64,000 nt of DNA from IMG/VR virus record IMGVR_UViG_2541047860_000002; one strand, 5' to 3'. Shown one piece after another: positions 18,035-54,942 of this stretch (its first letter is position 1; the number at the start of each line of letters is the position of its first letter). Source of the stretch: a virus. Taxonomy: Duplodnaviria > Heunggongvirae > Uroviricota > Caudoviricetes. Below the pieces are notes generated by a model, which saw nothing but the letters and a program-made list of their open reading frames with translations, was not told the origin of the DNA and searched no databases. Made by a program: the position numbers and the translations under genes.

Positions 18035-18053
18035 ATTTTAGTTTTCTAACACA
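18035..18053 (+). promoter_or_regulatory. Dispersed operator-like motif (reverse orientation of ATGTTAGAAAACTAA)
   Basis: ATTTTAGTTTTCTAACACA 14 bp upstream of ORF 18067. Confidence 0.4.
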
Positions 18054-18066
18054 AATCATTAGAGTT

Positions 18067-18459
18067 ATGTCGTATCGAATCTTTGTTTCGTATAAAAATG
18101 GCGCTAAGAGCCACTCTCTGAACACAACAAGTCGCTTTCTTGTTGAGGCGCAGTTGGCATCAATTCTTGCCGAAAGTGAGATACTCTCGCTCGCTGAACG
18201 GATCGTTATCCAGTTTTCTGGTAGAGATATACTCAATGTCCCCGCCCTCACCCCGGCATCCGAAGTTATGGAATCAATTAAATGGCCTGTATGCGGATGT
18301 CCTGCCAGGGTTGAAGAGCCGGTAACTGCAACGCTCTACATGCCGAAAGCTGTAAGAGATTGGCTTGCTATGGTTGGCAATGGGAAAGTCAGTGCTGGAC
18401 TTCGCAAGTTAATTGAAATGGCAGATATTCCTGAGTTAAAAAATGCATGGCGACAATGA
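18067..18459 (+). CDS. Hypothetical protein
   Basis: 130-aa ORF. Confidence 0.4.
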   Translation: MSYRIFVSYKNGAKSHSLNTTSRFLVEAQLASILAESEILSLAERIVIQFSGRDILNVPALTPASEVMESIKWPVCGCPARVEEPVTATLYMPKAVRDWLAMVGNGKVSAGLRKLIEMADIPELKNAWRQ

Positions 18460-18475
18460 GTAAACAAGGGACAAA

Positions 18476-18934
18476 ATGAGTCACGTTAACCCATCAAAAA
18501 CACAATATCGCTTAATGCTGGCGATCGCGTCAGCTATACCAACCAGCCTGAATCCCCCGGCAGGCTATCCCGCTGTTGTTGATGATTGTTTTCAGTATTA
18601 CGGAGAAGACATCCTGAGCCAGTCAAAAGCGCTCAAGCAGTTATGTAAGGCAGGTATTCTTCACTGTATCGGAGATCCGGACGATTTTGTTGTTATGCTG
18701 GCGGATCGTGACTCTTTTCTACTGTCCTGGAAAGCCGGTGCGCGCGAAGCACGTTTGGGGAATGGTATTGGTTACATAGACTATAGTGATTGTCCGCTGG
18801 CATTTGCTGGTGGATACATGCATTGGCATGAGCGAAATAGAGGCCGTCAGCGTCAGTATCGCTTGAGTGACTTTAACGTCTGTCACGGTTTCGAAGAAGC
18901 TGACAGCCAGGACATCTGGCTTCAGGAGCCTTGA
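18476..18934 (+). CDS. Hypothetical protein
   Basis: 152-aa ORF. Confidence 0.4.
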   Translation: MSHVNPSKTQYRLMLAIASAIPTSLNPPAGYPAVVDDCFQYYGEDILSQSKALKQLCKAGILHCIGDPDDFVVMLADRDSFLLSWKAGAREARLGNGIGYIDYSDCPLAFAGGYMHWHERNRGRQRQYRLSDFNVCHGFEEADSQDIWLQEP

Positions 18935-19254
18935 TCCCCCTTCCCTTCCCAAATCTCCCTGTTTCTTTGGTTATTCAGTGCGTTTCGTTGGTTGCATTCG
19001 TCGATCGTGCTGAATAACTGTTCAGCGTATGTCGGATACTTGTTTAACAGCACTGGCGTGTCCTCTGGCACTAAACAAGGGGAGTAATCAATCAGATTTG
19101 CCTGCGGCTTGCTGGTGGCTTCTACGGTAATTTTCACTGGCACGCTGGTTGATGGCTTTTGCCCGTTCCCGCTGCATCCTGATAACGTCATCAGGCACAC
19201 GCACATCGTTAATCCCAGCACGGCGTAACGCATTTTCAAGGCGAGTGATTTCAT
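18922..19254 (-). CDS. Lipoprotein, o-spanin-like (Rz1-like)
   Basis: Signal peptide with lipobox LSGC, Pro-rich mature part, additional Cys; start embedded in 3' end of upstream gene in another frame. Confidence 0.45.
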   Translation of the reverse strand: MKSLALKMRYAVLGLTMCVCLMTLSGCSGNGQKPSTSVPVKITVEATSKPQANLIDYSPCLVPEDTPVLLNKYPTYAEQLFSTIDECNQRNALNNQRNREIWEGKGDQGS

Positions 19255-19579
19255 TCTGGCTTTCCTCTCGTTGTTTGATTAGGTTGGCATTCAGTTCTGC
19301 TGTTTTGCGCTGGTACTCCTTTTCCAGTGCTTTAATTCTTTCGTTTTCGGTCAGCATGGCTGAGCGAGCGTTCTCACTTAACTGTAATGCGGTAGAAAGC
19401 GTGTTGTTCGTGCTTTCCAGTTGTGATTTTGAGTCTTCAAGCGATCGGACATACCTGATGTGTTCGATAACTGCCGTCGTTGTTCGGTAAATTCCAGAAA
19501 TGGCTAAAAGCGCAATTACAATCAAAATTATCTTTTTCAAAACCATCCTCTTCAGGTTCATTTTTTTGGTGTTAAACAT
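19088..19579 (-). CDS. Membrane-anchored coiled-coil protein, i-spanin-like (Rz-like)
   Basis: N-terminal TM helix then ~120-aa coiled coil; overlaps lipoprotein gene. Confidence 0.45.
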   Translation of the reverse strand: MFNTKKMNLKRMVLKKIILIVIALLAISGIYRTTTAVIEHIRYVRSLEDSKSQLESTNNTLSTALQLSENARSAMLTENERIKALEKEYQRKTAELNANLIKQREESQNEITRLENALRRAGINDVRVPDDVIRMQRERAKAINQRASENYRRSHQQAAGKSD

Positions 19580-19618
19580 GTACCAATTTACATCCTTTTG
19601 TGTTCCTAAGTGGTGTTG

Positions 19619-20422: not shown

Positions 20423-20706
20423 TATGCAACCTGAAAAATATCCTCGCCGTTGGCGATAACAGAACCACAAGAAAGCGGATCGCCTACACAGACAACTCCC
20501 TTTCCACCTATCGAAAACCATACTCGCGTCGATACAGCTGCCCCTGGGTGTGCACTGTTACCGTCAGTGTGACTGGGAAACATGGCACCATCTACAACAA
20601 CTGGCTTACCGTTAACGGTGAACCAAGGAACGGTTTCAGCTACCAGTCGCGGCGGAAATCCTCCGTGACCAGAACAAAGGGTGTCGCTGGTGGCTATTGC
20701 GCTCAT
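20422..20706 (-). CDS. PAAR-like spike-tip protein (putative)
   Basis: 94-aa protein with CSGHGG and SCGSVIANG motifs resembling PAAR-like domains. Confidence 0.4.
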   Translation of the reverse strand: MSAIATSDTLCSGHGGFPPRLVAETVPWFTVNGKPVVVDGAMFPSHTDGNSAHPGAAVSTRVWFSIGGKGVVCVGDPLSCGSVIANGEDIFQVA

Positions 20707-22420: not shown

Positions 22421-22568
22421 GTTAAATAGGATGCAATATAAGGTGTATTTGGTCTGATTGATGTTATACTTTGCCAAACATTCATGACTCCATTATAGAG
22501 CCTGTCCCGCATCAAAAAGGCTCTTATCTGGAACCGTTTTGATACCAAAATCACACCGAGGAACGGAT

Positions 22569-23757: not shown

Positions 23758-25419
23758 ATGAGTGAGGCAGAAGCCCGCCCGACTAACTTTATTCGTCAGA
23801 TCATCGATGAAGATCTGGCCAGTGGTAAGCACACCACAGTACATACCCGTTTCCCGCCGGAACCGAATGGCTATCTGCATATTGGTCATGCGAAATCTAT
23901 CTGCCTGAACTTCGGGATCGCCCAGGACTATAAAGGCCAGTGCAACCTGCGTTTCGACGACACTAACCCGGTAAAAGAAGATATCGAGTACGTTGAGTCG
24001 ATTAAAAACGACGTTGAATGGTTAGGTTTTCACTGGTCTGGCAACATCCGTTACTCCTCCGATTATTTTGACAAACTCCATGCCTATGCTGTTGAACTGA
24101 TCAACAAAGGCCTGGCGTATGTTGACGAACTGACGCCGGAACAGATCCGCGAATACCGCGGCACCCTGACGCAGCCGGGTAAAAACAGCCCGTACCGCGA
24201 CCGCAGCGTTGAAGAGAACCTGGCGCTGTTCGAAAAAATGCGTGCCGGTGGTTTTGAAGAAGGTAAAGCCTGCCTGCGTGCGAAAATCGACATGGCTTCG
24301 CCGTTTATCGTGATGCGCGACCCGGTGCTGTACCGTATTAAGTTTGCTGAACACCACCAGACTGGCAACAAGTGGTGCATCTACCCGATGTACGACTTCA
24401 CCCACTGCATCAGCGATGCGCTGGAAGGTATTACGCACTCTCTGTGTACGCTTGAGTTCCAGGACAACCGTCGTCTGTATGACTGGGTACTGGACAACAT
24501 CACCATTCCTGTTCACCCGCGCCAGTACGAATTCTCGCGCCTGAATCTGGAATACACCGTGATGTCCAAGCGTAAGCTGAACCTGCTGGTGACCGACAAG
24601 CACGTTGAAGGCTGGGATGACCCGCGTATGCCGACCATTTCCGGTCTGCGTCGTCGTGGTTACACTGCGGCTTCTATTCGTGAGTTCTGCAAACGCATCG
24701 GCGTGACCAAGCAGGACAACACCATTGAGATGGCGTCGCTGGAATCCTGCATCCGTGAAGATCTCAACGAAAATGCCCCGCGCGCAATGGCGGTTATCGA
24801 TCCGGTGAAACTGGTTATCGAAAACTACCAGGGCGAAGGCGAAATGGTCACCATGCCGAACCATCCAAACAAACCGGAAATGGGTAGCCGTCAGGTGCCG
24901 TTTAGCGGTGAGATTTGGATCGACCGCGCCGATTTCCGCGAAGAAGCTAACAAGCAGTACAAACGTCTGGTGCTGGGTAAAGAAGTGCGTCTGCGTAATG
25001 CTTACGTCATTAAGGCTGAACGCGTGGAGAAAGATGCCGAAGGCAATATCACCACCATCTTCTGTACTTATGACGCCGACACCTTAAGCAAAGATCCGGC
25101 AGATGGTCGTAAAGTGAAAGGCGTTATTCACTGGGTGAGCGCGGCACATGCGCTGCCGGTTGAAATTCGCCTGTACGACCGTCTGTTCAGTGTACCGAAC
25201 CCAGGTGCTGCGGATGATTTCCTGTCGGTGATTAACCCGGAATCGCTGGTGATCAAACAAGGCTTTGCTGAACCGTCGCTGAAAGAAGCGGTAGCGGGTA
25301 AAGCATTCCAGTTTGAGCGTGAAGGTTATTTCTGCCTCGACAGCCGCCATTCTACGGCGGAAAAACCGGTATTTAACCGCACCGTTGGGCTGCGTGATAC
25401 CTGGGCGAAGTTAGGTTAA
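23758..25419 (+). CDS. glnS: Glutaminyl-tRNA synthetase
   Basis: 553-aa class I aaRS with HIGH (HIGHAKS) and VMSKR motifs and full-length enterobacterial GlnRS-like sequence; own promoter region and terminator. Confidence 0.95.
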
Positions 25420-27935: not shown

Positions 27936-27946
27936 GTCTCACCATT

Positions 27947-27999
27947 TATGTTAGAAAATGCATGTTAATTATCTAACACAAATGGGTGCATTTTCTATC
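27947..27999. promoter_or_regulatory. Operator-like motif cluster upstream of rdgC operon
   Basis: TATGTTAGAAAATGC plus inverted TCTAACACAAA and TTTTCTA within 50 bp. Confidence 0.4.
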
Positions 28000-28648: not shown

Positions 28649-29625
28649 TTGTTCGGCACTCCCAATATCATTCGTGTTGTGTAGCCTACGCGGTCCTCAA
28701 AGTGCGCAACATTTTTTACTATCAGCTTACGGGGCATTGATTCATCAATGCGGTTTTCCTGGTCATAGCGGTATACGATAATCTCTATTACCATCCCCGG
28801 TTTTATATCAGGATTGCCTGCGACTTCTATATCCATTTTGGGGACGAGAGACAGCTGCATATTGCGAAGAGTTTCCATATCAGAGTCGGATATATAACGC
28901 ACTGGGAGTGAGCTATCGCCATATTCGACGTAGCCATCGGTCATGGAATACCCAACAAAACGATATTGATTCTTTGCTGTTGACGCATGTTCCTGTTGGA
29001 GTAGGCGCATTTTTGACAAAGTGTATTCTGCTTTAGGGTTATTCCCCTCGTAGGTAAATGATGGCGTTTGCTTCATCAGATCAGCCAGGGTGTAAAAGTT
29101 AAATTCCCCCCGACATACCCAACACAATGCACCTTTGTCTCGCGCTATCTCCGAAAGCATTTTTGACGGTTTGTCACCAGCATTCAGATGATATGTAACT
29201 GCGCGTTTTAGCACGCTGCTGGTAATTTTAAGCTTGCCGGAATATGCCTTGAATATAGCGTCTGGTGTTTTGTTGGTATGTAAATTTGTGCGCGGGGAGG
29301 GGATCTTAAACCTGCGCACGTCTTCACTGACAGCAATAACGGTAACAACATCACCAGCCAGCATTGCAGACGTAACAAAGAAATCTGTTTTAAAAGTGCC
29401 TGCATTACCGTTTGGATCGCCCATTTCAGCCACCAGCGATGCACCGTATTTGGCTTTCCAGTCATCAATTACGGTGCCGGTAGCGTCATGAATTTCCAGT
29501 TTTAGCAAAGGGGCTTTGAGGCTGGTTTTTTCTACATATACTGCGGTAAAAATCCAGTCTCGTGGCACTTTGTTATCGTTAATGAGCACTGACTGTAGAA
29601 AATATTGTTGTAACTCCTGGGCCAC
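28645..29625 (-). CDS. Hypothetical tail/baseplate protein
   Basis: 326-aa ORF. Confidence 0.4.
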   Translation of the reverse strand: MAQELQQYFLQSVLINDNKVPRDWIFTAVYVEKTSLKAPLLKLEIHDATGTVIDDWKAKYGASLVAEMGDPNGNAGTFKTDFFVTSAMLAGDVVTVIAVSEDVRRFKIPSPRTNLHTNKTPDAIFKAYSGKLKITSSVLKRAVTYHLNAGDKPSKMLSEIARDKGALCWVCRGEFNFYTLADLMKQTPSFTYEGNNPKAEYTLSKMRLLQQEHASTAKNQYRFVGYSMTDGYVEYGDSSLPVRYISDSDMETLRNMQLSLVPKMDIEVAGNPDIKPGMVIEIIVYRYDQENRIDESMPRKLIVKNVAHFEDRVGYTTRMILGVPNK

Positions 29626-29628: not shown

Positions 29629-30396
29629 TCACCCCATAGATATCGAGGTTTCGGTAATAATACGTTTTGCGTCCAACTCCCATGCTGTGATCACGTCTGC
29701 AATCACACTTATCGGCGCTTGTGTGGCATAAATACGCTCTTCTCCAATTGGTGCTGAAACATCCGTAAAGCCGACTTCTTTGGCATCCTGTATCGAGCAA
29801 ATCAGCGGGACCGGGACACGAACAAGGTGAGTGGTTGCTTCAAATTGTGTACCTGTCATCAGGCGAAGCCGTGCGCCCAGCGAATTACACATCAGACTCA
29901 TGGTCGCTTTATCAGTTGCCATTAACGTAACGTCATACGTCAGAATGGCCTGGGTGTATTCCAGTTCTGCTAAAGGCGTTCCGGTATCTGGTTCGCAAAA
30001 ACTGGCTACTTTTTTGCGGTCAATCTGCTGATCATCGTTGATATAATTGATATCCATAGTGCGTGAGATATTGACCAGGGGGAGAGCATCCCGGTTAATG
30101 TTCTGGTTTTCAGGTTTTCTCCCTTGCCCGGCATTTGCGCGACGAACTGCTTTAAGAAACTCGATCGCATTGTCGAAACGGGCCATATAGACACGCTCTG
30201 CTGGTGGACGATTCAGGAATGACGCAAAGCGTTTTTCTTCCGGCGCGGGGGCCACCAGTAAGATATCAGAAAAAATGTTGCTGATTAGCGTCGCAAACGC
30301 GTTATCCACGTTTTCAAAGCCCGTGGTCTGGAATTTTCCTGTGCGTAAGGTTTGCCATTCACCGGTTCGCGCCAGGAGGGTTTTATTTGAAGTCAT
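29629..30396 (-). CDS. Hypothetical structural protein
   Basis: 255-aa ORF. Confidence 0.35.
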   Translation of the reverse strand: MTSNKTLLARTGEWQTLRTGKFQTTGFENVDNAFATLISNIFSDILLVAPAPEEKRFASFLNRPPAERVYMARFDNAIEFLKAVRRANAGQGRKPENQNINRDALPLVNISRTMDINYINDDQQIDRKKVASFCEPDTGTPLAELEYTQAILTYDVTLMATDKATMSLMCNSLGARLRLMTGTQFEATTHLVRVPVPLICSIQDAKEVGFTDVSAPIGEERIYATQAPISVIADVITAWELDAKRIITETSISMG

Positions 30397-32114: not shown

Positions 32115-32315
32115 ATGAACATTAAACCTATCCGTACAGAACAAGATTATGAGGCCGCACTGCGTGCGGTCAAACCGATGTTCGATAACGAACCGGAAAT
32201 GAATACTCCGGAAGGTGATTTCTTTGAGGTTATGAGTCTTCTCATTGAGGAGTACGAGAAGAAACATTACCCAATTCAGCCACCATCACCTGTTGAATCT
32301 TTTAACTATCCATAA
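32115..32315 (+). CDS. Small protein resembling only the N-terminal domain of HigA-type antitoxins (no HTH)
   Basis: IKPIRTEQDYEAALRAV...TPEGDFFEVMSLLIEEYEKKHYPI; ORF stops where the HTH domain would begin. Confidence 0.4.
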   Translation: MNIKPIRTEQDYEAALRAVKPMFDNEPEMNTPEGDFFEVMSLLIEEYEKKHYPIQPPSPVESFNYP

Positions 32316-34614: not shown

Positions 34615-34807
34615 AACAAAGCCTCTCAGTCATAACCTGGGGGAAACTGTATGCAGGGTGTGAAATGCGAGAAACAGACAGGCCACCAGTTCAGGGGGAT
34701 GTGGCTCATAAATCCCCTCACTGGTGACAAGTGACTTTCATTAATCTTTATGCGGGGGCCAGCTTCATTTGCTGGCATTAGATTAAAAATTAAACGGAGT
34801 GAATGAC

Positions 34808-35596: not shown

Positions 35597-35938
35597 TGTC
35601 CTTCCTCCACGGATGACGGATACAAAAAAAGGCCGCACATGGCGGCCTGCTTTGGCGTTATGACTCCCTACCGCGCTTCGGCTGAAAGTTAATCGTCAAA
35701 AGAACCTTCAACGGGAGCCGTTAGCGCGATGGATTATGTGCAGTTTGTGATTTCCAAAATAGTGTCAACCACTTTTTGTGGATTTTATTTTTTGACAGAA
35801 ATTTGGCCTAAATCATGTTGATTTGGCTGATTATTTTTATAACATAAAAGTCATTTTGATTGCATGAAGGACGGTGCAGTGAAGTTAAGGGTTTTAGGGA
35901 CCGCGCTCGCGGCTAAGATGGTAAGGTATGGAGTTAAT

Positions 35939-37643: not shown

Positions 37644-38585
37644 TTAACTAACAATCCAGTCCGTAGCAACAACATCCTCTGGAGCTAAATCAATCGCATG
37701 GATTTTCCCATCCCGGATAGTGCGCCAGTGCTTTCGTGATCCACCTTCGGGCCATACCCATACACCTTCAGGCCAAGATGCTCGACGGCATACGATTGCA
37801 TACCCTGTTTTAATCCTCTCTCTGGCGGTATGCAACGACAGGTTTGCCTTTGGACTTTCAGGCACAGGATGGTGGATTGCCTGAAACATCCCCATCTTTG
37901 GATGATACCAGCGTTTATTGCGTGGTTCTGCCTCCGACATCACCTGCTTAAAGGCTTTCCGGAAGGGGGCCAGAGCCACAATGGAGCGTCGCGCAAGCAA
38001 GCCATCGGGGGTCAAAAACTCATGTGTATCGGTGGGAATCCGGTAAGCGTTAACCAGGTTGCGGCATTTGGCTTCAGTCAGGCCGCATTTCGCCGCCAGC
38101 TGGCGGTAGCCAATGTAACCTTCCGGCATATTGCCTTTCTTGATTTGCTCGAGTGTTTCAGCAACCATCGATACTTGTGCTGATACCTCGGCTACCTGGG
38201 CATTTACGGCGTTGATCCGGCGTTCATGCTCAAGATGCATTTGCGCCATTTCAGCCAGGATTTCGGCTTTTGATTTTAACTGTACCCGGGCATTCTCCAG
38301 TTCGCGCCAGCGGTCCACTAGCCGGGCGGTAAATTCGGGAGAGAGCTGCGCGACGACAACAATGCTGTCTCGTTTTCCTTGCTCGCCTTCGAAGACATAG
38401 ACCGGATCTTTGACAACCTTCCCTAAGTTATTGATTCTTTCGACGAACTCATTTTGAGTTTCTCGGATGACACCGCTAGCCATCATATTGCGAATGGTAC
38501 GTAAAACATTGCCGTGACGACTACCAACTAACTCTGCAATATCTAGGCTACTCATTGTCGCTTTTTGAGAGATGGACAGATTCAT
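37644..38585 (-). CDS. Phage antirepressor (Rha/Ant N-terminal domain)
   Basis: N-terminal SSLDIAELVGSRHGNVLRTIRNM typical of Rha/AntA family. Confidence 0.65.
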   Translation of the reverse strand: MNLSISQKATMSSLDIAELVGSRHGNVLRTIRNMMASGVIRETQNEFVERINNLGKVVKDPVYVFEGEQGKRDSIVVVAQLSPEFTARLVDRWRELENARVQLKSKAEILAEMAQMHLEHERRINAVNAQVAEVSAQVSMVAETLEQIKKGNMPEGYIGYRQLAAKCGLTEAKCRNLVNAYRIPTDTHEFLTPDGLLARRSIVALAPFRKAFKQVMSEAEPRNKRWYHPKMGMFQAIHHPVPESPKANLSLHTARERIKTGYAIVCRRASWPEGVWVWPEGGSRKHWRTIRDGKIHAIDLAPEDVVATDWIVS

Positions 38586-38800
38586 CAGTGCACCTCCACG
38601 CAGTTCATCGGCAGATTCCAGTAATTGAGGATCTCCATCGCATCAAGAGTGAAGCGAGCAGCAAAAATGCAGGGTTCTTCGGGAAGGTATGAGCGCGCCT
38701 CTGATTCGGTAGCAGCCATGACGCAGATATACAGGTGCTTTTGGCAGGAATAGAAACGCCAGATAAATTCAGAATGAGTTGGGGTAGGGATAGTAGCCAT
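38585..38800 (-). CDS. Small protein translationally coupled to antirepressor (Icd-like position)
   Basis: 71-aa ORF whose stop overlaps the ant start. Confidence 0.35.
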   Translation of the reverse strand: MATIPTPTHSEFIWRFYSCQKHLYICVMAATESEARSYLPEEPCIFAARFTLDAMEILNYWNLPMNCVEVH

Positions 38801-38829
38801 ATTGGCAGCCTCCTTTTGCTAATTTAAGG

Positions 38830-38940
38830 AGCTACCGCGTGAGGTCTCAATCTCAATGGCGGTAGCACTGGCTGGGTTGAGACTACCGGCGCAAAAGGGA
38901 ACCGGCCTGCCTTTCGGCAGCCCAGCCAGCACTACCATTG
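38830..38940 (-). ncRNA. Candidate structured leader / antisense-type RNA upstream of icd-ant
   Basis: Nested inverted repeats: GCTACCGC/GCGGTAGC, and GGTAGCACTGGCTGGG (38861-38876) pairing 14/16 with CCCAGCCAGCACTACC (38921-38936); no ORF. Confidence 0.25.
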
Positions 38941-39112
38941 ATCTTGGAGCTATACGCTACGTATGGCTGTGCGATGGCATGACACAAAAAAAGACGCTTT
39001 CGGCGTCTGTGTCGCCTTTTGCATTATCCGGGGTCTCAATCCCGGCACCCGTTTTTCTAAGGTGCCGTAGAAATATACCCCACGATAATGCCAGGGCGCA
39101 ACAGTCAGTATT

Positions 39113-39280
39113 TTATGCTTTGGCGGATTTTTTCCGGGCTTGCTTGCAGGCGTAGGCCATTGCTTTAGCTTTCACTTCATCCAGCTTCCCGGTGATCACT
39201 TCTTTTCCGAGAGTGACAAACCAGTCATAGCAACCGCCAGTAATGTTCTTGATTTGAAAGTTGAGGTAGCGAACAGTCAT
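39113..39280 (-). CDS. Small protein (55 aa) with strong RBS
   Basis: GGGGG 8 nt upstream of ATG; below ORF track cut-off. Confidence 0.3.
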   Translation of the reverse strand: MTVRYLNFQIKNITGGCYDWFVTLGKEVITGKLDEVKAKAMAYACKQARKKSAKA

Positions 39281-39599
39281 TTTGACACCCCCAGCGCGAG
39301 TAAAGAATGCAGATTATCGCGTGAGTGGTGGACGACGAGTGATGGGAAAAGACTGTAGTTGTTCATAGTGTAGTGACTCCTTGCTTTCGGAGCCGCCATC
39401 GACTGTTCCACGGTCTGGTGGCGGCGCAATAAAGGCTGGAACACCGTGAGTCAACGGGGGCTTTTCAGCCACCTATATTGCACCGCCATAGGTATGGCGG
39501 CGGCAATAATACGAAAAACTAAACAGTTTGTCTCAAAAAGTTGACCGGTGTGCCAATCGGTAGTGAATGTACATCGGAGAAATTTTCAATTCAACTTAA

Positions 39600-39618
39600 A
39601 ATGTTAGAAAACTAATTT
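39600..39618. promoter_or_regulatory. Operator-like motif AATGTTAGAAAACTAATTT
   Basis: Core ATGTTAGAAAACTAA identical to the site at 54926. Confidence 0.4.
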
Positions 39619-40190
39619 ATCAATTCAATTGCCATCTGATACAACGCCATTTCATCGGCATTGTGCCGCATGAAATCTGCTTTTCCGCCTATTTTTCCAT
39701 CAGCATGAACAGGGACCAGCCAGGGATATTGTTCTCGGACCTCGGCTGGCGCTGCGTACTGGTGGTGCCATTTACACAAAGGGAGGACATATTTATGCGC
39801 GTTCTCTGCCGTTCTCCCGAAGATATGGTGCAGGGATACTACTGGGCTATGTTGCCCGTGAATATGGCAGGCAATGCAGGGGAGAGTACCGATAGCGGTC
39901 TGTATCCGGCGTTCATCGGCTGTGAGTGATCTGCCCTTCAGGCCGCGTGACGTGCGTGTTTTTTTGGACGGAGCGGATACAGCTTTCTCTTTTCTCCGCT
40001 GGTCATATTGCTTTGCTTTTTCAATTTTTTTTTGCCGATATTCAGGCGATGCGGCTTTTTCTCTCGCTCGCTGCTGCTGGCGTTGAGCTTGTTGAAGGCG
40101 CTTTGCCCTTTGTTCCTCTCGCCAGGCCGGGTCAGCCAATTTTTGCATGGCTTTTTGTCTCTGTTTCTCCCAGTAGCTCTGTTTCTGCAT
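39612..40190 (-). CDS. HNH-like nuclease with basic disordered N-terminus (Ref-like, putative)
   Basis: N-terminal 100 aa K/R/Q-rich; C-terminal CIACHIHGQH..SLHHI..CKWHH metal-binding motif. Confidence 0.45.
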   Translation of the reverse strand: MQKQSYWEKQRQKAMQKLADPAWREEQRAKRLQQAQRQQQRAREKAASPEYRQKKIEKAKQYDQRRKEKAVSAPSKKTRTSRGLKGRSLTADERRIQTAIGTLPCIACHIHGQHSPVVSLHHIFGRTAENAHKYVLPLCKWHHQYAAPAEVREQYPWLVPVHADGKIGGKADFMRHNADEMALYQMAIELIN

Positions 40191-40211
40191 GATGGCTGCC
40201 TCTTACTTTTC

Positions 40212-40272
40212 AGCGATTTTTCTATGATTGATCAAAATTGTTAGATATTCAAAATTGATTTTCTAACACAAA
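40212..40272. promoter_or_regulatory. Operator-like motif cluster in divergent promoter region
   Basis: ATTTTTCTA, TTGTTAGATA and TTTTCTAACACAAAA. Confidence 0.4.
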
Positions 40273-40462
40273 ACATTAATATCATTCCTGATAACTGTTT
40301 GGAGGACATGATGCTTATAGCTTTAAGTGCGATCCACCAGCCATCTGTGAATGAGATTGGCCTGTTCTATGTGTTGTTTTTCGGGGCGTTGGCGCTACTT
40401 GAGCTTGGTATTGAGCTTTTCGCAGTGCTTATGTTTTGCGTCACGATTTTGGGGAAATTTTG

Positions 40463-41086
40463 ATGGTGAAACGTGTTTTGAAAATTTACATCGCGGGGCC
40501 GATGACTGGTTATCCAGATTACAACCGTGCGGCGTTTAATGCGAAAGCGAGCGAGTTGATGGCTGAAGGGCATATCGTTCTGAATCCAGCGGTGTTACCT
40601 GGTGGCCTTTGCCAGAGTGAATACATGGATATTTGCCTGGCAATGGTGCGTTCTGCTGATGCGATCTATTTGCTCAATCAATGGGAAGAATCGGTTGGTG
40701 CTCGTGCAGAGCACGCGTTGGCTGAAAAGCTTGGGCTGACTGTAATTTATGAGTCACCAACCAACATTGAATGCCAGGTTGCTACGCATATTTACCGGGA
40801 ACTGGTCAATGCGTTACGTGATGTTGCTATTGAATGTCACGGCACGGATCAGCTTCGCGCTCGCTTAAGCCAAACCCTTTCCAGTTACCTGTCTTTGGCT
40901 GAAGGATACAACCTCCGACAGCGAAGAATGGTCAGATTAATCACGCGGTTATCTCAATCCCTGGCAAATGCTGAACCAACTAATCCGCTACCTAATGACG
41001 CAATGAATTATCTGAAGTCATGCGGCGTTGTTTCTGAAGATGCAGTTCGTTTTGTGGAGTTTATGTCTCAGAGGATGTCGGCGTGA
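40463..41086 (+). CDS. Nucleoside 2-deoxyribosyltransferase-like (DUF4406-like) protein with C-terminal shared module
   Basis: KIYIAGPMTGYPDYNRAAF N-terminus; C-terminal HIYRELVNALRDVAIECHGTDQLRARLS also found in ORF 46824..47990. Confidence 0.4.
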   Translation: MVKRVLKIYIAGPMTGYPDYNRAAFNAKASELMAEGHIVLNPAVLPGGLCQSEYMDICLAMVRSADAIYLLNQWEESVGARAEHALAEKLGLTVIYESPTNIECQVATHIYRELVNALRDVAIECHGTDQLRARLSQTLSSYLSLAEGYNLRQRRMVRLITRLSQSLANAEPTNPLPNDAMNYLKSCGVVSEDAVRFVEFMSQRMSA

Positions 41087-41400
41087 GCTGGCGGGGATGG
41101 GGAAGGGCAGAAATCATGATACTCCGCCAGTGCGCCGGAACTATGACGGTCGAGAGTATTGGGAAGCTGATCGGTCGTACCGGTGATGCCGTCAGGACTA
41201 AAGCGCGGGAGTTGGGGATCAGCATGATTCTGAAAGGAGACTTTCATCCGTCAGCCAAATACCGGCAGAGCGATATAGAACTGGCACGGCAGCTTCATCA
41301 GTGTGGTGTTCCCCGCCGTGAGATCGCGGAAAAACTCGAAATGCCCCTGGGCATGATTAATCAGTACGTTTATTTCGAAAGGAGAGTGTATGAAGTCTGA
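41083..41400 (+). CDS. Hypothetical protein
   Basis: 105-aa ORF. Confidence 0.35.
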   Translation: MSWRGWGRAEIMILRQCAGTMTVESIGKLIGRTGDAVRTKARELGISMILKGDFHPSAKYRQSDIELARQLHQCGVPRREIAEKLEMPLGMINQYVYFERRVYEV

Positions 41401-41899
41401 AGGTTTAACGCCCGCACAACTGGCAGAGCGTAACGCTGAGTATGTAACGGAAATTTCCCGACTTGAGCAAGAACGCTCGGCGCTGGCGGCGGAGAATGCG
41501 GGAATAAAGTCTGCAATTCCAGAATCACGGGATATTGAGGATGACAATGACAATATGGATGACGTATCTCTCGCGGAAGATTTCGGGTTCAATCATGCAA
41601 TAGAACTGATGAGGAGACGGATTCCTGAAACTCCGGCCACCGACGCTTTCCTGGCTGAAGTACGTGCGGAGGCACGCAACGAGGGGATTAACTACACCGC
41701 AAGCCGTCTTGCTGCTGCGTTCAATCACGGATTTATCAATAAGTCTTTGCGTGAAGTTTTCGACGTTACACGCATGATTTTGTCAGCGAAAGAAGAGTTG
41801 GCTAATGAACCGCATCCGCTTGATGGCCTGTCCGGTGAATATGCGGAGAAATCCCTAGAAGAATGGGCGGAACAGATTCGCAAAGGAAGCAGCCAGTGA
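41390..41899 (+). CDS. Hypothetical protein
   Basis: 169-aa ORF. Confidence 0.35.
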   Translation: MKSEGLTPAQLAERNAEYVTEISRLEQERSALAAENAGIKSAIPESRDIEDDNDNMDDVSLAEDFGFNHAIELMRRRIPETPATDAFLAEVRAEARNEGINYTASRLAAAFNHGFINKSLREVFDVTRMILSAKEELANEPHPLDGLSGEYAEKSLEEWAEQIRKGSSQ

Positions 41900-42171
41900 A
41901 TATCGACACCACGATAACGATCGATACGGCCCTAAATACCGGACTGGCACTTCTCGGTTGGCTTTACATCATGTCCAGTACATGGCGATGGCTGGGTTCC
42001 ATTTTCCTAAAACAGTGGAAAAAACGGCGCAAACAGGAACTACGCCAGAAGGCATTAGAAGCGTTCTATGACGCATTTGAACTTAGCCGCATAGAACCAG
42101 GCACAACAGCCAGGATAGCGACAAAAGGCGACCTGATGATAGTGATGTTCAGACAGGAGAAAACAAAATGA
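41863..42171 (+). CDS. Hypothetical small membrane protein
   Basis: 102-aa ORF with one hydrophobic helix. Confidence 0.3.
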   Translation: MGGTDSQRKQPVNIDTTITIDTALNTGLALLGWLYIMSSTWRWLGSIFLKQWKKRRKQELRQKALEAFYDAFELSRIEPGTTARIATKGDLMIVMFRQEKTK

Positions 42172-42392
42172 CAGAACAGACGATGACAAATCGCGAACTT
42201 GTTGATGCCGCGATTGAACTTGCTGGCGATTTTTATTCCATGATGGGTTACGAGCATCGACCTGGTTTTAAGTATTGGGAGTCACCGCATCCGCAAGAAC
42301 AACAGGTGTTTGAAATGGCTTGCCGTGCTTTTGAGTTTATTCGCGGTTCTGATGTGATGGAGGCCGTTGCCGATTTGGAGGATGAAGAGTGA
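42168..42392 (+). CDS. Hypothetical protein
   Basis: 74-aa ORF, overlapping start/stop. Confidence 0.35.
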   Translation: MTEQTMTNRELVDAAIELAGDFYSMMGYEHRPGFKYWESPHPQEQQVFEMACRAFEFIRGSDVMEAVADLEDEE

Positions 42393-42700
42393 GCACAATT
42401 AAAGAAATGCCGGTAGAACGTGATGAATATGGCTGCTGGACACATCCGGAGTATGAAAAGTTTTGCGCAGGCCGTGAATATATTTCCACTGAGGAATTTG
42501 ACGCCTGGATGAAGGGAAATAATCTTCAGTGGACTATTCGCAGTATGGATGAAGATGATTTTGATCTGGACGCAGCTGGTCCCGATATTGCCGCCTGGGA
42601 ACCGGAGCGACCAGAGGGTGAAGGCTGGTTTGTTGGCTCTATTCATGACACTGAAGATGGTCCGGTTTGTATCTGGCTGCGTGAGAAGGTTGCCGCATGA
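42389..42700 (+). CDS. Hypothetical protein
   Basis: 103-aa ORF, overlapping start/stop. Confidence 0.35.
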
Positions 42701-43389
42701 CACAGGCTATGCATGAAGTGAATTTATATAGCCGTATTGATGGTTCTGGCTACAGAAACATATGGGTTGTTGGTGATCTGCATGGTTGCTACACCAGACT
42801 GATGTCCGAACTCCATCGTGTGGATTTTGACCCGGCGCAGGATTTACTGATATCGGTTGGCGACCTTATCGATCGCGGTACTGAAAATGTCGAATGTCTG
42901 GAACTATTGCAGATGCCCTGGTTCAGGGCAGTAATGGGGAACCATGAGCGGTTGATGCTTGATGCGTTAAGTCCTGATGGCAACGTGAATAACTGGCTAA
43001 TGAATGGCGGACAATGGTTCTTCATGCTGGACACTGATCAGGAAATATTAGCCAAGGCGCTGGTGGAGCTGGTAAAGCGTCTGCCATATATCATTGAGTT
43101 GAACACCGGGCATGAAACTATCGTTATAGCCCATGCCGACTATCCAGGTGGAGAGTACCAGTTCGGTAAGGATGTGTCGCTTTTTGATGTTGTCTGGTCG
43201 CGCAGTCGCGTCGGTGATTCGATAGATGGCATTGGTGGAGAAATCACAGGCGCAGATCGCTTTATCTTTGGGCACACACCGGTACGAAGACCAAAAGCAT
43301 ACTGGAATCAGCACTACATAGACACGGGCGCGGTTTTTTGCGGAAATCTGACGCTAATGCAGGTGAAGGGAGGGCAGCTTAAAGTCTGA
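42697..43389 (+). CDS. Ser/Thr protein phosphatase (lambda PPase / PrpA-like)
   Basis: GDLHG, GDLIDRG and GNHE metallophosphatase motifs. Confidence 0.8.
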
Positions 43390-43409
43390 TCAAATCATTT
43401 ACGCACTCA

Positions 43410-43450
43410 AAATTTGTTAGAACATTGATTATAGTTTTCTAACATATTAT
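43410..43450. promoter_or_regulatory. Operator-like motif pair
   Basis: TTGTTAGAACA and inverted TTTTCTAACATA upstream of ORF 43487. Confidence 0.4.
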
Positions 43451-43486
43451 TTTACCGCTCGGAACAAAACAGAGTCGGTATACATT

Positions 43487-44482
43487 ATGAGTGCAATAAT
43501 CACACCTCATTTCGTAAACGGAGCTGGTGTGGCTGTCTTTCCGGTAGACAAGCCCACCAGTAACTACATTGGCGCAGGTCGCCGTTTCATTATCTCCCCA
43601 CTTCCGCGTGAACAGGCTGAAAACACGCCAGATGGCGTAGTGGATCTGAATTATTCGCTGGTTGCCAACCAGTCTCTGAAACCGTTTTTTCAAAGCGAGC
43701 GCGTATTTAACGCGTTGGGCGGTGAAGATTCGCTTGTTCATTGGGTAAGTTCCAATATCCACGATTGCCAGGCGCACGATAAGCGCGATTGCAGCCACCA
43801 GCTAACCACTCATTTCTATAACGGCTCTGCCGTTCGCCTGTGCTGGAAGCATGATGCGGAATACATGATGAAGGGGTACAGCAAGTTGGACGACCAGTTA
43901 TCCCTGAATCGTGCCAACTGGGTTATGAACTGGGCTGCGAGCGAGTTAAAACTACCGCCAGAACGCGATCTGAGCATGGTTGAACTCACTTTTTGGGCCA
44001 TTCGCCGGAATCTGAAAGATGAGCTACCAGATGAAGCCGGTCGCATTGCATTTTGTCAGCCAAAAACTGAAATCCCTACCGGTACGCTGAAAGAATCAGA
44101 TATCACCTGGGAGCACAGTACCCGCGAGCTGGTGGACATAACCGCAGAGCAGATCGTCAACCTGTCTGTAGATGAGGATTCCGGCCTGCTTTATATGCGC
44201 CGACCAAAAGCGGTCCTCGGTAAAAGCCCGGCTTATCTCCGGTTTGTGGTTTCTCGTCCGTGCATCGGATGCGGTGGCAAAGTTAACCACCCGTTCATGT
44301 ACCGCGCCCGCTCGTTAAACGAACACGACCGCTGGGCTGTTCCTCTTTGCGATGACTGCGCCAGAAGCGCAGAAAACGATGTCCGGGCATGGGAAAAAGC
44401 ACATGGCATACGCCTTTACGTAGCCGCTAACCAGCTTTTTGACTTCGCCATCGAGCGCGGAGTGATCACTTTCAATAACTGA
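43487..44482 (+). CDS. Hypothetical protein with C-terminal Cys cluster
   Basis: 331-aa ORF; CIGCGG..CDDC. Confidence 0.4.
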   Translation: MSAIITPHFVNGAGVAVFPVDKPTSNYIGAGRRFIISPLPREQAENTPDGVVDLNYSLVANQSLKPFFQSERVFNALGGEDSLVHWVSSNIHDCQAHDKRDCSHQLTTHFYNGSAVRLCWKHDAEYMMKGYSKLDDQLSLNRANWVMNWAASELKLPPERDLSMVELTFWAIRRNLKDELPDEAGRIAFCQPKTEIPTGTLKESDITWEHSTRELVDITAEQIVNLSVDEDSGLLYMRRPKAVLGKSPAYLRFVVSRPCIGCGGKVNHPFMYRARSLNEHDRWAVPLCDDCARSAENDVRAWEKAHGIRLYVAANQLFDFAIERGVITFNN

Positions 44483-44486
44483 TGAG

Positions 44487-45179
44487 GTGGATCAAAAAAT
44501 GAAAGAACGCGGGATGATTTTTAACGATGAGATGGTCAGGGCCATCCTCGAAGGAAGGAAGACGCAGACTCGCCGACCTGTAAAAAATGTCAGGGCCGAT
44601 AACTGCCTGGTTATCCGTAAACCGACAAAGAAACGCAATGGTGTCTATACCCACGTTATGGATGCACCTGAACATGGTTTATGCCCGTTCGGTAACGTTG
44701 GTGATCGCATATGGGTCCGTGAGGCGTGGGCGATATTAGGCAATGAGGATGGTTGCAGTGTGGACTGGAACGACAACCTTTGTCGTGGCGATGAGAAGAA
44801 CGCAGCAAGGATTTATCGGGCCAGTTGTGAGCAAAAGCCGGGTGATTACGGCTTGTGGTCGATACCCGATGATGCCGACTGGAAACCTCACACTGTGAAT
44901 GAAAAATTTGATGGCGGGTGGCGTCCATCAATTCACATGCCGCGCTGGGCATCGCGCATTTTGCTGGAAATTACCGACGTGCGTGTGGAACGGCTGCGTG
45001 ATATGAGCGAGGCAGATGCTAAAGCAGAAGGCGCATCTCCGGCGATGTACAAAATTACGCCGCCGGAAGCTGTTTATCGCGTTGGTTTTGGTGATATCTG
45101 GCGCAGTATTTACGGGCAGGATAACTGGCTATCTAACCCGTGGGTATGGGTAATCGAGTTTAAGCGCATTCAGGAATAA
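44487..45179 (+). CDS. Hypothetical protein
   Basis: 230-aa ORF. Confidence 0.4.
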   Translation: MDQKMKERGMIFNDEMVRAILEGRKTQTRRPVKNVRADNCLVIRKPTKKRNGVYTHVMDAPEHGLCPFGNVGDRIWVREAWAILGNEDGCSVDWNDNLCRGDEKNAARIYRASCEQKPGDYGLWSIPDDADWKPHTVNEKFDGGWRPSIHMPRWASRILLEITDVRVERLRDMSEADAKAEGASPAMYKITPPEAVYRVGFGDIWRSIYGQDNWLSNPWVWVIEFKRIQE

Positions 45180-45262
45180 ACCGTGAGTATGCATCAAATC
45201 GTCAGTTTTTCAGGTGGACGAGCATCGGCCTGTCTCGTTCATCTGTTCGAAGAGGTAGTGGC

Positions 45263-45466
45263 ATGACAATCGTAAAAACCCATACCGGCACCGTGATCAC
45301 CAAAGACGGTCCGCAGGTAAAAAAACTGCACCAAACAGAGCGGATGTGGGTCGTCGGCAAAAATGAGTTTTACCACAAAGATACCGGACGCCGCCACTTT
45401 GCAGAAAATACGCGCCGTCGACTGCTGTTAGACACCATCAAGCCTATCGAGGTGAAGCATGTTTAA
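45263..45466 (+). CDS. Hypothetical small protein
   Basis: 67-aa ORF. Confidence 0.3.
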   Translation: MTIVKTHTGTVITKDGPQVKKLHQTERMWVVGKNEFYHKDTGRRHFAENTRRRLLLDTIKPIEVKHV

Positions 45467-45698
45467 ACAGAACGAAAAAGCTATCGCTCAAATTGCTGAT
45501 TATATCCCGCGTGCGTGCCGGGGTATGCAGTTGCAGGAAGCCAAAGCGCGCCTGGAGAAAAAAATTGCGCTCTATATTGATGACGGCTGTGATGCTGCCG
45601 TTCTTAACGCGGCGTTCGCACCAGCTCTTAACAGTCATACTCGGGAGTCTTTTTTTTCGTGCATCGAAGCGCAACTCCGCAAAGGAGGCAACCAGTGA
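45459..45698 (+). CDS. Hypothetical small protein
   Basis: 79-aa ORF. Confidence 0.3.
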   Translation: MFKQNEKAIAQIADYIPRACRGMQLQEAKARLEKKIALYIDDGCDAAVLNAAFAPALNSHTRESFFSCIEAQLRKGGNQ

Positions 45699-46420
45699 GC
45701 CAGATTGATTATCAAAAGCTTCGTGAAATCGCTGAAAAAACAAAAATTGCCGGTGAAGCACCTGTAATGCCTTTCGATCAGCGAATTAATGCGCTTAACG
45801 ATTTTATGAAGCACTTTTCGCCAGATATCGCGCTGGCATTGTTGGATGAACGGGAAAGAAACCAGCAATACATCAAACGCCGCGACCAGGAGAACGAGGA
45901 TATTGCGCTTACGGTTGGGAGGCTGCGCGTTGAGCTGGAAGGCAAAGACAGCAAAATAGCCAATCTTACCGCCGAACGCGATGCTCTTCGTGAAGGTGAG
46001 ATGGGCGACGCTAGGCATAGCAACACACGGGCCGCAGCTGATATCTACTTCCAACTGGTCGAGGAATGCGAAATTCCTGCTGGCGGATCTCTGGTCGAGT
46101 ACGTTGACGATATGCGCGAGAAGCTGGAAGCCGCAGAGAAGCGCATTGCAGAACTGGAAGCACGGGAAATAAAACCAGCCAAAGGCGAAGTTCTTGTCGT
46201 TGTCTCTGGTTTTACTGGTTGCGGGAAAAGCGCCATTGCCGGGGAAATAGAAATTGCGATGAAAGCTATTGGTGTGCCGGTTCAATGGACTAATGGCGAT
46301 GCAGAAAAGCATATGACCGGCGCTGACTGGCTGACAGCGATTGAGATGTACAAACCAACTGTGCGCATCGTGGAAGTTAATGTGCCACGCGCCGCTGGCA
46401 TTCGCATCAAAGGAGAGTGA
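45695..46420 (+). CDS. Coiled-coil protein (Ead/Ea22-like)
   Basis: GTG start with AGGAGG 6 nt upstream, overlapping previous stop (GTGA). Confidence 0.4.
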   Translation: MSQIDYQKLREIAEKTKIAGEAPVMPFDQRINALNDFMKHFSPDIALALLDERERNQQYIKRRDQENEDIALTVGRLRVELEGKDSKIANLTAERDALREGEMGDARHSNTRAAADIYFQLVEECEIPAGGSLVEYVDDMREKLEAAEKRIAELEAREIKPAKGEVLVVVSGFTGCGKSAIAGEIEIAMKAIGVPVQWTNGDAEKHMTGADWLTAIEMYKPTVRIVEVNVPRAAGIRIKGE

Positions 46421-51451: not shown

Positions 51452-51457
51452 GTTAAA

Positions 51458-52135: not shown

Positions 52136-52149
52136 AGTCTTTTCTCTGC

Positions 52150-53117: not shown

Positions 53118-53458
53118 CGACGCCCCCTTGCAGGATAGCGACCTGCATTAGTATCCGGTGCAATAAAGCCGGTAGTGGGGCGAGTGAAAGCGAGATTAAT
53201 CTTCTCGACCATAGTGCGATAATTTTCCTGATAGTGGGCCAGGAGTTTTTCGGCGGCAATGATGGTTACTTTCCGGACGTAGCTTTCTGCTTCCTCCAGA
53301 TTTCGCCAGTTTTTTTCGAGGGTAAACACAGGGACGGCCTCAAGCCCGGTCATGATGCCGAACACAACGACAGCATGACTGTTCTTAACACCAGCGGCGA
53401 AGGTTACGGTGTAACCATCCACCTTAAAGCGTCTTGATTCCGTGATTTGACTCTGCAA
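53114..53458 (-). CDS. Hypothetical protein
   Basis: 114-aa ORF. Confidence 0.4.
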   Translation of the reverse strand: MQSQITESRRFKVDGYTVTFAAGVKNSHAVVVFGIMTGLEAVPVFTLEKNWRNLEEAESYVRKVTIIAAEKLLAHYQENYRTMVEKINLAFTRPTTGFIAPDTNAGRYPARGRR

Positions 53459-53515
53459 AGCACCCTCCGAAATAGGCGAGGGTACTTTACAGCAAAGATA
53501 ACAATCTAAAAAGAT

Positions 53516-53534
53516 GTGTTAGAAATTTAATTTA
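53516..53534. promoter_or_regulatory. Operator-like motif TGTGTTAGAAATTTAATTT
   Basis: Lies between the dre stop and the start of the 53458 operon. Confidence 0.4.
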
Positions 53535-54560
53535 TGAATCCATCAGGCGGCTATTAGCCCCCACAGACACGCCGCCACGGCGCAGATACCGCATAAGTGT
53601 TTCCGGTTTCTTCCAGGTTCCTTCCTGCATGATCTCCACCATAGACACCTGCTTTTCTGCCATATCGATAGCAGCCCCGACACGAGCACTATGCCCGGTC
53701 CACGTCCGGTATCTCCCCTTGTTTGGAGTGGCATCTCTTTTATTCAGCAACACCCAGGCGTCACTAAATATTTTCTCCATTGCAGGTGCAGTAAGGGGCG
53801 TTGTCGTAATCCTGGCCTTATTGCTACGGTGTATCGGCGGGAACAGCACCGCGTCAGGATGTTCACGAAGCCCGGAAACATCCAGCCAGTCATTCAGCAC
53901 AGCAGTAGTGCGACGGGAAAGCACCTTATCAAGCCCGGCGGCGGTCGTTATTGTCTTCGTGTGTGAAATATGTAGCGTGACAGTGTCACCTGTTTGGTCC
54001 AGATCTCCTACACGAATACGCGAGATTTCAGACATGCGCATCAGCGTATTGTATGCAACAAAGAGAAAAGCCCGGTTGCGCAGGTCCACCAGCCGTTCTG
54101 ACCTGGACAACAGGACGTCGAGCAGTTTCAGATCGTCCCACCGCAGCGGTATAGCCTGGCCTGTTCGTTCGCCTTTTTCCGTTGCCGCTTCACGCCGGAT
54201 GCGCCGCATAGCCAGAGAAACACTTTTATCATCCGAAAGTGGCGGAAGGCCACAATGCGAAAGCAGCATGTTCAGCATGGCGTAGTGCTTATCAATGGTG
54301 GTCGAAGCCAGATCAGCATCATGCAGCTGAAGAAAATACTCGCGGGCCATCTCTGGAGAGATCGGGAACCAGGCGAGCTGGCGAGCGTGACACCATCTCG
54401 CCCAGGAGTGAAACACTAACCGGAGATCGCGCAAAGTATTAGGCGCGTAAGCCCCCTGGTCATTCATGAACCGCATAAAGTTTTCTGCGGCCTCCTGGTA
54501 CTCTTTGCCAATGTTGCGCAGAAAACCACTGGAGCTGCCAGAGATAATTAATTCACTCAT
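53532..54560 (-). CDS. dre: Cre-family tyrosine site-specific recombinase (Dre-type)
   Basis: 342-aa protein alignable with P1 Cre along its length (MRRIRRE.., AFLFVAYNTLMRMSEISRIRVGD, HSARVGAAIDMA, C-terminal Tyr); rox-type site 150 bp upstream. Confidence 0.9.
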   Translation of the reverse strand: MSELIISGSSSGFLRNIGKEYQEAAENFMRFMNDQGAYAPNTLRDLRLVFHSWARWCHARQLAWFPISPEMAREYFLQLHDADLASTTIDKHYAMLNMLLSHCGLPPLSDDKSVSLAMRRIRREAATEKGERTGQAIPLRWDDLKLLDVLLSRSERLVDLRNRAFLFVAYNTLMRMSEISRIRVGDLDQTGDTVTLHISHTKTITTAAGLDKVLSRRTTAVLNDWLDVSGLREHPDAVLFPPIHRSNKARITTTPLTAPAMEKIFSDAWVLLNKRDATPNKGRYRTWTGHSARVGAAIDMAEKQVSMVEIMQEGTWKKPETLMRYLRRGGVSVGANSRLMDS

Positions 54561-54712
54561 GAAACTATTTAACCTCTATATACAGATGACGCTACGCGAA
54601 AAATATAAAAATGACAGGGTAGCTATAAGTTAATTTTCAAGATTCAAACCTTTGATTCGAGGCACGTATTTTCAGTGATGTCAACACTGATCATCCACCC
54701 ATGATTATAGCT

Positions 54713-54744
54713 TAACTTTAAATAATGCCAATTATTTAAAGTTA
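54713..54744. other. rox-type recombination site (14-bp inverted repeats, 4-bp spacer)
   Basis: TAACTTTAAATAAT-GCCA-ATTATTTAAAGTTA, perfect palindrome arms; identical to the rox site of phage D6 Dre as I remember it. Confidence 0.85.
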
Positions 54745-54924
54745 TAAAGTGCCAATTTTTTTTAATCCATCATAGATTGATGATGACCAGTAACACGTTG
54801 CCTTCATGGTCTTTAATTTGCGAAGTGTGGTTTCTACGGTTGGTTTTCTAAAATTGATGACAAAAAATCACAGTTCGATCCTTTACTCACTCTGTTATTC
54901 GACATAAATTTGTCATAGTAATTT

Positions 54925-54942
54925 TATGTTAGAAAACTAAAT
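54925..54942 (+). promoter_or_regulatory. Operator-like motif TATGTTAGAAAACTAAAT
   Basis: 13 bp upstream of ATG 54955. Confidence 0.4.

Follow-up and report, generated by a model that had tools for sequence, protein, structure and literature searches.

A dispersed operator-type motif in a D6-like, P1-family plasmid prophage and its predicted C1-family repressor

We analysed a 64,000-nt stretch of viral DNA (Caudoviricetes; IMG/VR virus record IMGVR_UViG_2541047860_000002; in the following called the window), in which a short asymmetric motif recurs at the starts of unlinked operons. From its enrichment, its placement and the analogy to phage P1, it is very probable that the element's own C1-family repressor, representing the immunity type of phage D6, recognizes this motif as its operator.

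Judged by its sequence, the window is a D6-like plasmid prophage of the P1 family, because nearly every D6 gene maps onto it. In tblastn searches, nearly all D6 proteins from S through c1 to orf6 were found, at 90–100% identity. By megablast, the segment from 38000 to 46000 matched phage D6 (MF356679/NC_050154) with 96% identity over 79% and many ~90-kb plasmids of E. coli and Salmonella with 97–99%. The proposed binder of the motif is the product of c1 (54955..55992, + strand), a 345-aa C1-family prophage repressor that is 99.7% identical to the “C1-like prophage repressor” of D6. It is a distant homologue of P1 C1 (21% identity over 240 aa, E 8e-6), and according to precomputed annotation the family PF27008 (Phage_P7_repressor_C1) is present in 10 of 10 homologues of the window C1. 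D6-type C1 proteins were found in 149 records of a plasmid collection.

Sequence, enrichment and placement of the motif

The core TGTTAGAAAA or its complement occurs exactly six times in the window (18042−, 27949+, 39602+, 40259−, 43435− and 54927+), compared with 0.23 copies expected, and none of 100 dinucleotide-preserving shuffles contained six or more. A sequence-only reading of this DNA had named seven intergenic regions with the motif; all seven hold a site, the one at 53517 with one mismatch in the core. Its observation that two sites share an identical 15-mer is likewise correct (ATGTTAGAAAACTAA at 39601–39615 and 54926–54940), and this 15-mer has seven matches with at most two mismatches, compared with 0.13 expected.

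Alignment of the sites yielded a longer, non-palindromic motif of 20 nt, aTTTrTGTTAGAAAAyTAAt, with about 17–20 informative positions. We trained a 20-nt position weight matrix (PWM) on nine sites, for which its scores are circular. At a threshold of at least 14 bits, the window contains 12 matches compared with 0.66 expected and a maximum of two in 50 Markov-1 simulated sequences; three sites that were not used for training were recovered (35830−, 40234+ and 59355+). Altogether, we count 12–13 sites at nine loci, of which three hold convergent pairs and six or seven a single site. By analogy, the single-copy sites are presumed to be functional as well.

All sites lie in non-coding DNA, save for 5 nt that one of them shares with the ref stop codon, although 91% of the window is coding; the probability that nine of nine independent loci are non-coding by chance is ~4e-10. 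The genome-wide scan thus bears out the enrichment in intergenic DNA that the sequence-only reading had expected. Equal frequencies in coding DNA or in genomes of similar composition were not found, and the same PWM identified no site in P1 and none in a 93-kb P1-like plasmid of Leclercia.

The D6 genome, which is 89.5% coding, provides an extension of this result. In a full scan with the same PWM, 17 of 17 matches of at least 11 bits were non-coding. Five of these lie in segments that are absent from the window and had no part in training: those at 8912, 9068 and 10317 are positioned around pmgS, a weak one at 22462 lies upstream of repL, and the site at 21262, at the head of the first icd-ant module (icd1-ant1), has the highest score of all (29.9 bits). 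A blind search for enriched k-mers, Chi aside, returned TGTTAGAAAA as the top 10-mer in D6 (10 copies compared with 0.23 expected) and the C1 operator as the top 10-mer in P1 (12 compared with 0.11).

The Chi sequence GCTGGTGG is itself abundant, with 37 copies in the window compared with 3.2 expected, a ~12-fold excess (14 copies in + and 23 in − orientation, for example at 7689, 11928 and 60965). A similar excess is present in D6 (53 copies), P1 (50) and the Leclercia plasmid (86).

Sites and their predicted target genes

We compared the sites with the experimentally defined C1 operators of P1 as annotated in AF234172. The site next to the repressor gene, TTTTATGTTAGAAAACTAAA (54922..54941, +), is among the strongest (28.6 bits) and ends 13 nt upstream of the c1 start codon. 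It is the predicted autoregulatory operator and the counterpart of the c1/coi operator cluster of P1. This site is kept amid diverged flanks in relatives whose C1 is 89% or 68% identical, and it is also present in the classes of 44–51% identity. Lxc has been reported as undetected in D6-like elements (PMC6799933); coi and lxc were not searched for in our analysis. A second, weak candidate in the intergenic region between cre and c1, ATCAATTTTAGAAAACCAAC (54839..54858, −; 13.0 bits), is present in D6 as well but is doubtful, with ~2 chance matches per window expected in its score range.

The gene for the late promoter activator, lpa (58889..59281, −), is a predicted target. Its product is 100% identical to D6 Lpa, and its relatives carry PF25716 (BPP1_LPA). 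The site, 73 nt upstream (59355..59374, +; 19.4 bits), was not part of the training set and corresponds to Olpa of P1. The equivalent site in D6 scores 19.6 bits, and sites upstream of lpa were also found in four relatives (L009, L012, L013 and L014). Just 3′ of the recombinase gene (cre/dre), another site (53512..53531, +; 25.0 bits) lies 53 nt upstream of the operon orf117-orf116-dut-orf114-isaA. It is the counterpart of Ossb, which precedes ssb-isaA in P1, and is conserved in two relatives (L009 and L006).

The site at 39597..39616 (+; 25.6 bits) overlaps the stop codon of ref, whose coding sequence ends at 39612, as does Omat in P1. It stands at the head of a minus-strand operon, orf86-orf85-isrK-like-c4-icd-ant, ~200 nt from its first open reading frame (ORF), and is the counterpart of both Omat and Oc4, the operator of c4-icd-ant in P1; the D6 site at 21262 corresponds to Oc4 too. 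The predicted target is an immI-like module (37644..39065, −) with an isrK-like RNA (59 bits), a C4 antisense RNA (38855–38942, −; 76 bits, both assigned by Rfam), and icd and the antirepressor gene at 37644–38800 (icd2 and ant2, 98.6% and 99.4% identical to D6). Because the C4 RNA is located directly upstream of icd and ant, this site heads an immI-like operon. The sequence-only reading had placed the motif at the starts of accessory operons, which agrees with our results, but had assigned this particular site to ref, which does not. The predicted C1 network of the window hence shares with the immC system of P1 an immI module under an operator-type site. The “orf84” annotated in D6 (38856–39155, +) runs antisense to the C4 and isrK-like RNAs (38855–39065, −), overlapping both, and is unlikely to be a gene.

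Three loci are bivalent: their sites are convergent, in an identical 20-bp register, and form imperfect palindromes. The first pair (27944–27963, +, 25.0 bits; 27964–27983, −, 25.3 bits) precedes the hrdC(rdgC)-MTase-dmt operon by 8 nt and has 18-nt arms that are 89% complementary; it corresponds to Odmt of P1, upstream of uhr-hrdC-dmt. The second (40234–40253, +, 15.8 bits; 40254–40273, −, 27.2 bits) is located between the divergently oriented ref and orf88..ppp operon and is the counterpart of Oref and of Oppp, with the site at 40254 equivalent to Oppp of the P1 operon ending in ppp. Two or three copies in opposite orientation had been proposed for such places. The pairs are real at these three loci; the additional members of supposed triplets (27985–27999 and 40212–40230) score at chance level, with 7.9 and −1.3 bits.

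The third pair (43410–43429, +, 22.0 bits; 43430–43449, −, 24.9 bits) precedes pdcB (DUF968/HNH) by 37 nt. This gene opens an operon running to pmgU, and the pair is the counterpart of OpmgT of the P1 pmgT-pmgU operon. The operator-bearing region upstream of pdcB was found in 119 plasmid records from the same genera as the D6-type c1 genes. In plasmids of Shigella dysenteriae and E. fergusonii, conservation is confined to the operator pair and the 5′ region of pdcB (43415–43506; 87%), and a different gene lies upstream. From these sequences, the operator–promoter cassette seems to travel with its pdcB operon.

One strong site, at 18037..18056 (−; 29.1 bits), lies 10 nt upstream of orf52, the first gene of orf52-orf53, and 128 nt from the start of capsid gene 23; D6 has a site of 26.7 bits at the same place. 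A weaker candidate, TTTTATGTTATAAAAATAAT (35830..35849, −; 19.8 bits), falls into the gap between mat (−) and simB (+), with simB 29 nt away. It is conserved in D6 and has a G-to-T change in the core. This candidate is ambiguous because it overlaps a box resembling P1-type late promoters. It had been overlooked in the sequence-only reading, together with the site upstream of lpa and the weak one at 54839. Two further P1 operators find their counterparts in D6 segments that are missing from the window, namely OpmgRa/b (pmgR-pmgS) at 10317 and OrepL (kilA-repL) at 22462.

Elsewhere, the window departs from D6 in several places. The D6 “transcriptional regulator” orf72 (119 aa in D6) is shortened to 66 aa (32115–32315, +), and the adjacent orf73 is only 58% identical to D6; the replaced segment lies downstream of a higBA-like toxin–antitoxin pair. 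The region 60357–64000 differs from D6, lacking tciA and tciB and carrying another complement of tRNA genes, with a cluster of four such genes at 60815–63087 (−). As in D6, a full-length glutaminyl-tRNA synthetase gene, glnS, is present (23758–25419, +), with no operator-type site upstream.

Comparison with the operators of P1 and other relatives

The likeness to P1 and P7 comprises the C1-family repressor (PF27008), the presence of about 15–20 asymmetric sites of about 17–20 bp spread through non-coding DNA, and the classes of target genes: c1, lpa, ref, c4-icd-ant, repL, hrdC-dmt, the isaA operon, and the ppp, pmgS and pmgU operons. Some operators are bivalent in both types, one site lies on the ref stop codon, and none is found at plasmid-maintenance genes or late operons; in the window, the PWM scan detected no site upstream of repA, parMR, higBA, phd-doc or the late structural operons. 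The earlier suggestion that the motif is the equivalent of the dispersed C1 operators of P1 is well matched by this gene-for-gene correspondence, established in silico, and by the presence of a gene for a C1-family repressor.

The operator sequence itself differs, as had also been noted in the sequence-only reading, which proposed a separate immunity specificity; our results agree with this. It is TGTTAGAAAAyTAA in the D6 type and GCTCTAATAAATTT in P1, the consensus for P1 and P7 being ATTGCTCTAATAAATTT, which is 17 bp long and asymmetric. The two PWMs are reciprocally exclusive between the two genomes: the D6 PWM has 17 matches in D6 and none in P1, while the P1 PWM has 21 matches in P1 and none in D6. 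The single match of the P1 PWM in the window scores 14.4 bits and coincides with a D6-type site, on its reverse strand. The repressors are distant as well, with only ~21% identity between the 345-aa D6-type C1 and P1 C1. The paired sites are also arranged differently. In the D6 type, a distance of 21 bp separates the cores, and the sites abut by their yTAA ends, whereas the Oban a and b sites of P1 overlap by 6 bp with cores ~13 bp apart. D6-type elements furthermore possess two immI-like modules, unlike P1.

The C1 proteins in the plasmid records fall into identity classes of at least 99%, ~89%, ~80%, ~68–70% and ~30%. Upstream of both c1 and lpa, as well as downstream of cre, the 89% and 68% classes retain an intact motif in spite of divergence in the surrounding bases. 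Metagenomic contigs with C1 identities of 51, 48 and 44% have kept the core GTTAGAAAA upstream of lpa as well as c1, and also in the vicinity of the pmgS homologue. Divergence of the flanks has spared the G at position 6 of the core and the T-G-T-T prefix.

The lineage of Leclercia and Pantoea, with C1 proteins of ~30% identity, has CCTTAGAAT at the same positions in place of the D6-type core. It shares with D6 the network architecture, the orthologous positions, a C1 homologue and a TTAGA(A) core, but its operator is aaaGCCTTAGAATyTaT, and neither PWM has matches in the genome of the other. In the Leclercia plasmid pE1_003, this motif has 15 matches, 14 of them intergenic, whereas the D6 PWM has none. 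The places include ref (two), rdgC, lpa, c1 (three), the regions downstream of cre and of pmgS, and others. In the Pantoea plasmid pEuc3, the Leclercia-type motif lies upstream of lpa and c1. The three lineages (P1, D6, and Leclercia/Pantoea) therefore have a common architecture and each its own operator sequence, motif and C1 having changed together across lineages.

A TTAGA core is common to all three, as seen in P1 AAATTTATTAGAGCAAT (the reverse complement of the published consensus), ATTTrTGTTAGAAAAyTAAT and aaaGCCTTAGAATyTaT. An information-weighted comparison of the PWMs always selected the alignment anchored at TTAGA, with P values of 0.07 for D6 and P1, 0.04 for D6 and Leclercia, and 0.25 for Leclercia and P1. 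As this similarity is marginal, homology of the operators is suggested but not established. With the TTAGA-anchored alignment, the orientation of single sites relative to P1 agrees in ~4 comparisons and disagrees in two. We also searched for mosaic elements combining near-identical flanks with a different type of C1; no informative mosaic was found, and the homology to P1-type phages stops at the end of ppp. We tentatively suggest, at somewhat below even chances, that C1-family repressors of P1-like phage-plasmids read a common TTAGA core together with lineage-specific flanks, and that the operators are orthologous, fixed in position since the common ancestor and shaped by the co-evolution of repressor and site. 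If this is true, the C1 immunity groups of hundreds of P1- and D6-like plasmids in clinical Enterobacterales would be readable from sequence alone, and the bivalent operator of the D6 type, with convergent sites two helical turns apart, would represent a cooperative mode unlike the overlapping Oban of P1.

A wider parallel exists with the stoperators of cluster A mycobacteriophages, the many asymmetric 13–14-bp sites for the repressor (gp71 in L5) throughout the genome. There, too, one repressor serves many dispersed asymmetric sites in short intergenic gaps, and immunity evolves by co-variation of repressor and sites. The repressors belong to an unrelated family, however, and the phages differ in type and in host clade. 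Stoperators strictly follow the direction of transcription and affect elongation; D6-type sites, in contrast, have mixed orientations, and their pairs are convergent.

The Leclercia plasmid pE1_003 contains a second dispersed motif, ACTGTATGAC (29379–29408, 30194–30235 and 39401), with a tandem array of 8-bp period and inverted repeats GTGTGACTGTATGACAGTCACAC. It lies in intergenic DNA of the tail-gene region and may be a late promoter or the site of another regulator.

Candidate binder, mechanism and significance

By analogy to P1, we infer that C1 is the binder of the motif and that its binding represses transcription. In a lysogen, C1 made from its own gene would bind the asymmetric sites of ~17–20 bp at the 5′ ends of nine or more unlinked transcription units. 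This would silence lpa, the antirepressor module c4-icd-ant, ref, hrdC-MTase-dmt and several accessory operons, in D6 also lytic replication, and C1 would regulate its own synthesis via the site 13 nt from its start codon. At the three targets with convergent pairs, the TTAGA cores are 21 bp apart, i.e., about two helical turns, so that two bound C1 molecules would be located on one side of the helix, possibly leading to tighter and perhaps cooperative repression.

Several observations weigh against this interpretation. The AlphaFold2 (AF2) model of C1 (pLDDT 78) matched no known DNA-binding fold and had no convincing structural relative. A scan with a strict consensus placed no canonical sigma-70 promoter on the sites and a looser scan only marginal ones; an occlusion of promoters is thus hypothetical. 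At c1, orf52 and hrdC the sites abut the ribosome-binding site, and the one at 39597 is ~200 nt away from the first ORF, while at most loci the distance to the start codon is 8–73 nt. The site at 18037 has no P1 counterpart, those at 35830 and 54839 are weak or ambiguous, and the operator PWMs of D6 and P1 resemble each other no more than expected under a column-permutation null. Finally, motif and C1 co-diverge, but so does every other protein encoded by the element, which makes this argument non-specific for C1.

The last point would suit any lineage-specific protein. In one rival explanation, a different DNA-binding protein of the element recognizes the motif, as an activator or a repressor of early genes. 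The element encodes several further putative DNA binders, and candidates would be one of the two Bro-N/KilA-type “antirepressor” paralogues, a helix-turn-helix (HTH) protein of an accessory operon, or the D6 orf72 product; the modelled C1, lacking a recognizable DNA-binding fold, leaves room for them. Yet the homologue that binds the orthologous positions of P1 in experiments is C1, as annotated in AF234172, and one of the strongest sites lies at the 5′ end of c1 itself. Orf72 is truncated in the window, yet all sites persist. The ant genes are poor candidates for a master regulator, because they are themselves located downstream of the sites and, following the P1 analogy, their translation would be blocked by the C4 RNA in the lysogen. 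A binder other than C1 is therefore unlikely in our opinion.

The sites are without exception located at 5′ ends of operons, and TGTTAGAAA within the motif resembles an extended −10 element (TGnTAGAAA), while the reverse strand holds the hexamers CTAACA and TAACAT, which a loose scan sometimes takes as −35 or −10 elements. Accordingly, the motif could be a core promoter element, such as an extended −10, a −35-like CTAACA or the recognition box of Lpa. The hexamer TAGAAA, however, lacks the invariant T at −7, the strict promoter scan found nothing on the sites, and the late structural operons are devoid of the motif. Relative to the downstream genes, the sites point in either direction; their distance from the start codon varies between 8 and ~200 nt, and a convergent arrangement in pairs would make no sense for promoters. 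These three features point to a DNA site bound by a protein rather than to an RNA signal or core promoter element, and we judge a promoter element to be very improbable.

The motif was also compared with the P1-type late-promoter box and rejected as such, since that box is a different sequence (ACAAGTGACTT...TAnnnT). Boxes of this type were found at 34726–34750 (+; 19.7 bits) near gene 26 and, weaker, at ~35856 (−) upstream of mat, where it overlaps the candidate at 35830–35849. Because only one strong P1-type box is present in the window, D6-type late promoters may use a diverged box.

That the motif has no regulatory function, being a repeated AT-rich remnant such as a module-boundary sequence spread by recombination or a chance feature, would be compatible with the AT-rich nature of both the motif and the intergenic DNA and with the movement of the 43410–43449 pair and its promoter region together with pdcB beside different upstream genes, but is extremely improbable given that dinucleotide-preserving shuffles and Markov controls predict 20–30 times fewer copies, that position-6 G and T-G-T-T prefix are kept amid diverging flanks, that P1 and the Leclercia plasmid have no match despite similar composition and architecture, and that the positions match functional operators of P1.

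A description of the D6 operator was not found in the searchable literature, which did not cover the two D6 papers and the P1 genome paper, and in the three GenBank records of D6, rox and cix sites are annotated while operators are not. Systems of this kind are textbook P1 biology, expected for a relative of P1, and not a new principle. New are the sequence of the predicted operator of the D6 immunity type, the corresponding regulon and the comparative series, although a prior description is possible.

D6-like plasmid prophages occur frequently in E. coli, Salmonella and Shigella, and resistance genes are present in some of them. The predicted operator would define the C1 regulon of these elements, comprising lpa, the antirepressor module, genes for recombination and methylation, and accessory operons such as orf52-53 and the pdcB operon. 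Because its sequence differs from that of P1 and P7, D6-type and P1-type elements should ignore each other's C1. The operator hence predicts heteroimmunity with P1 and P7 at the level of C1, and homoimmunity among the C1 classes down to ~44% identity. The sites may be used for binding and reporter assays and for engineering, and the comparison of the three lineages provides a natural series for studying the co-evolution of a monomer-type repressor with its asymmetric operator.

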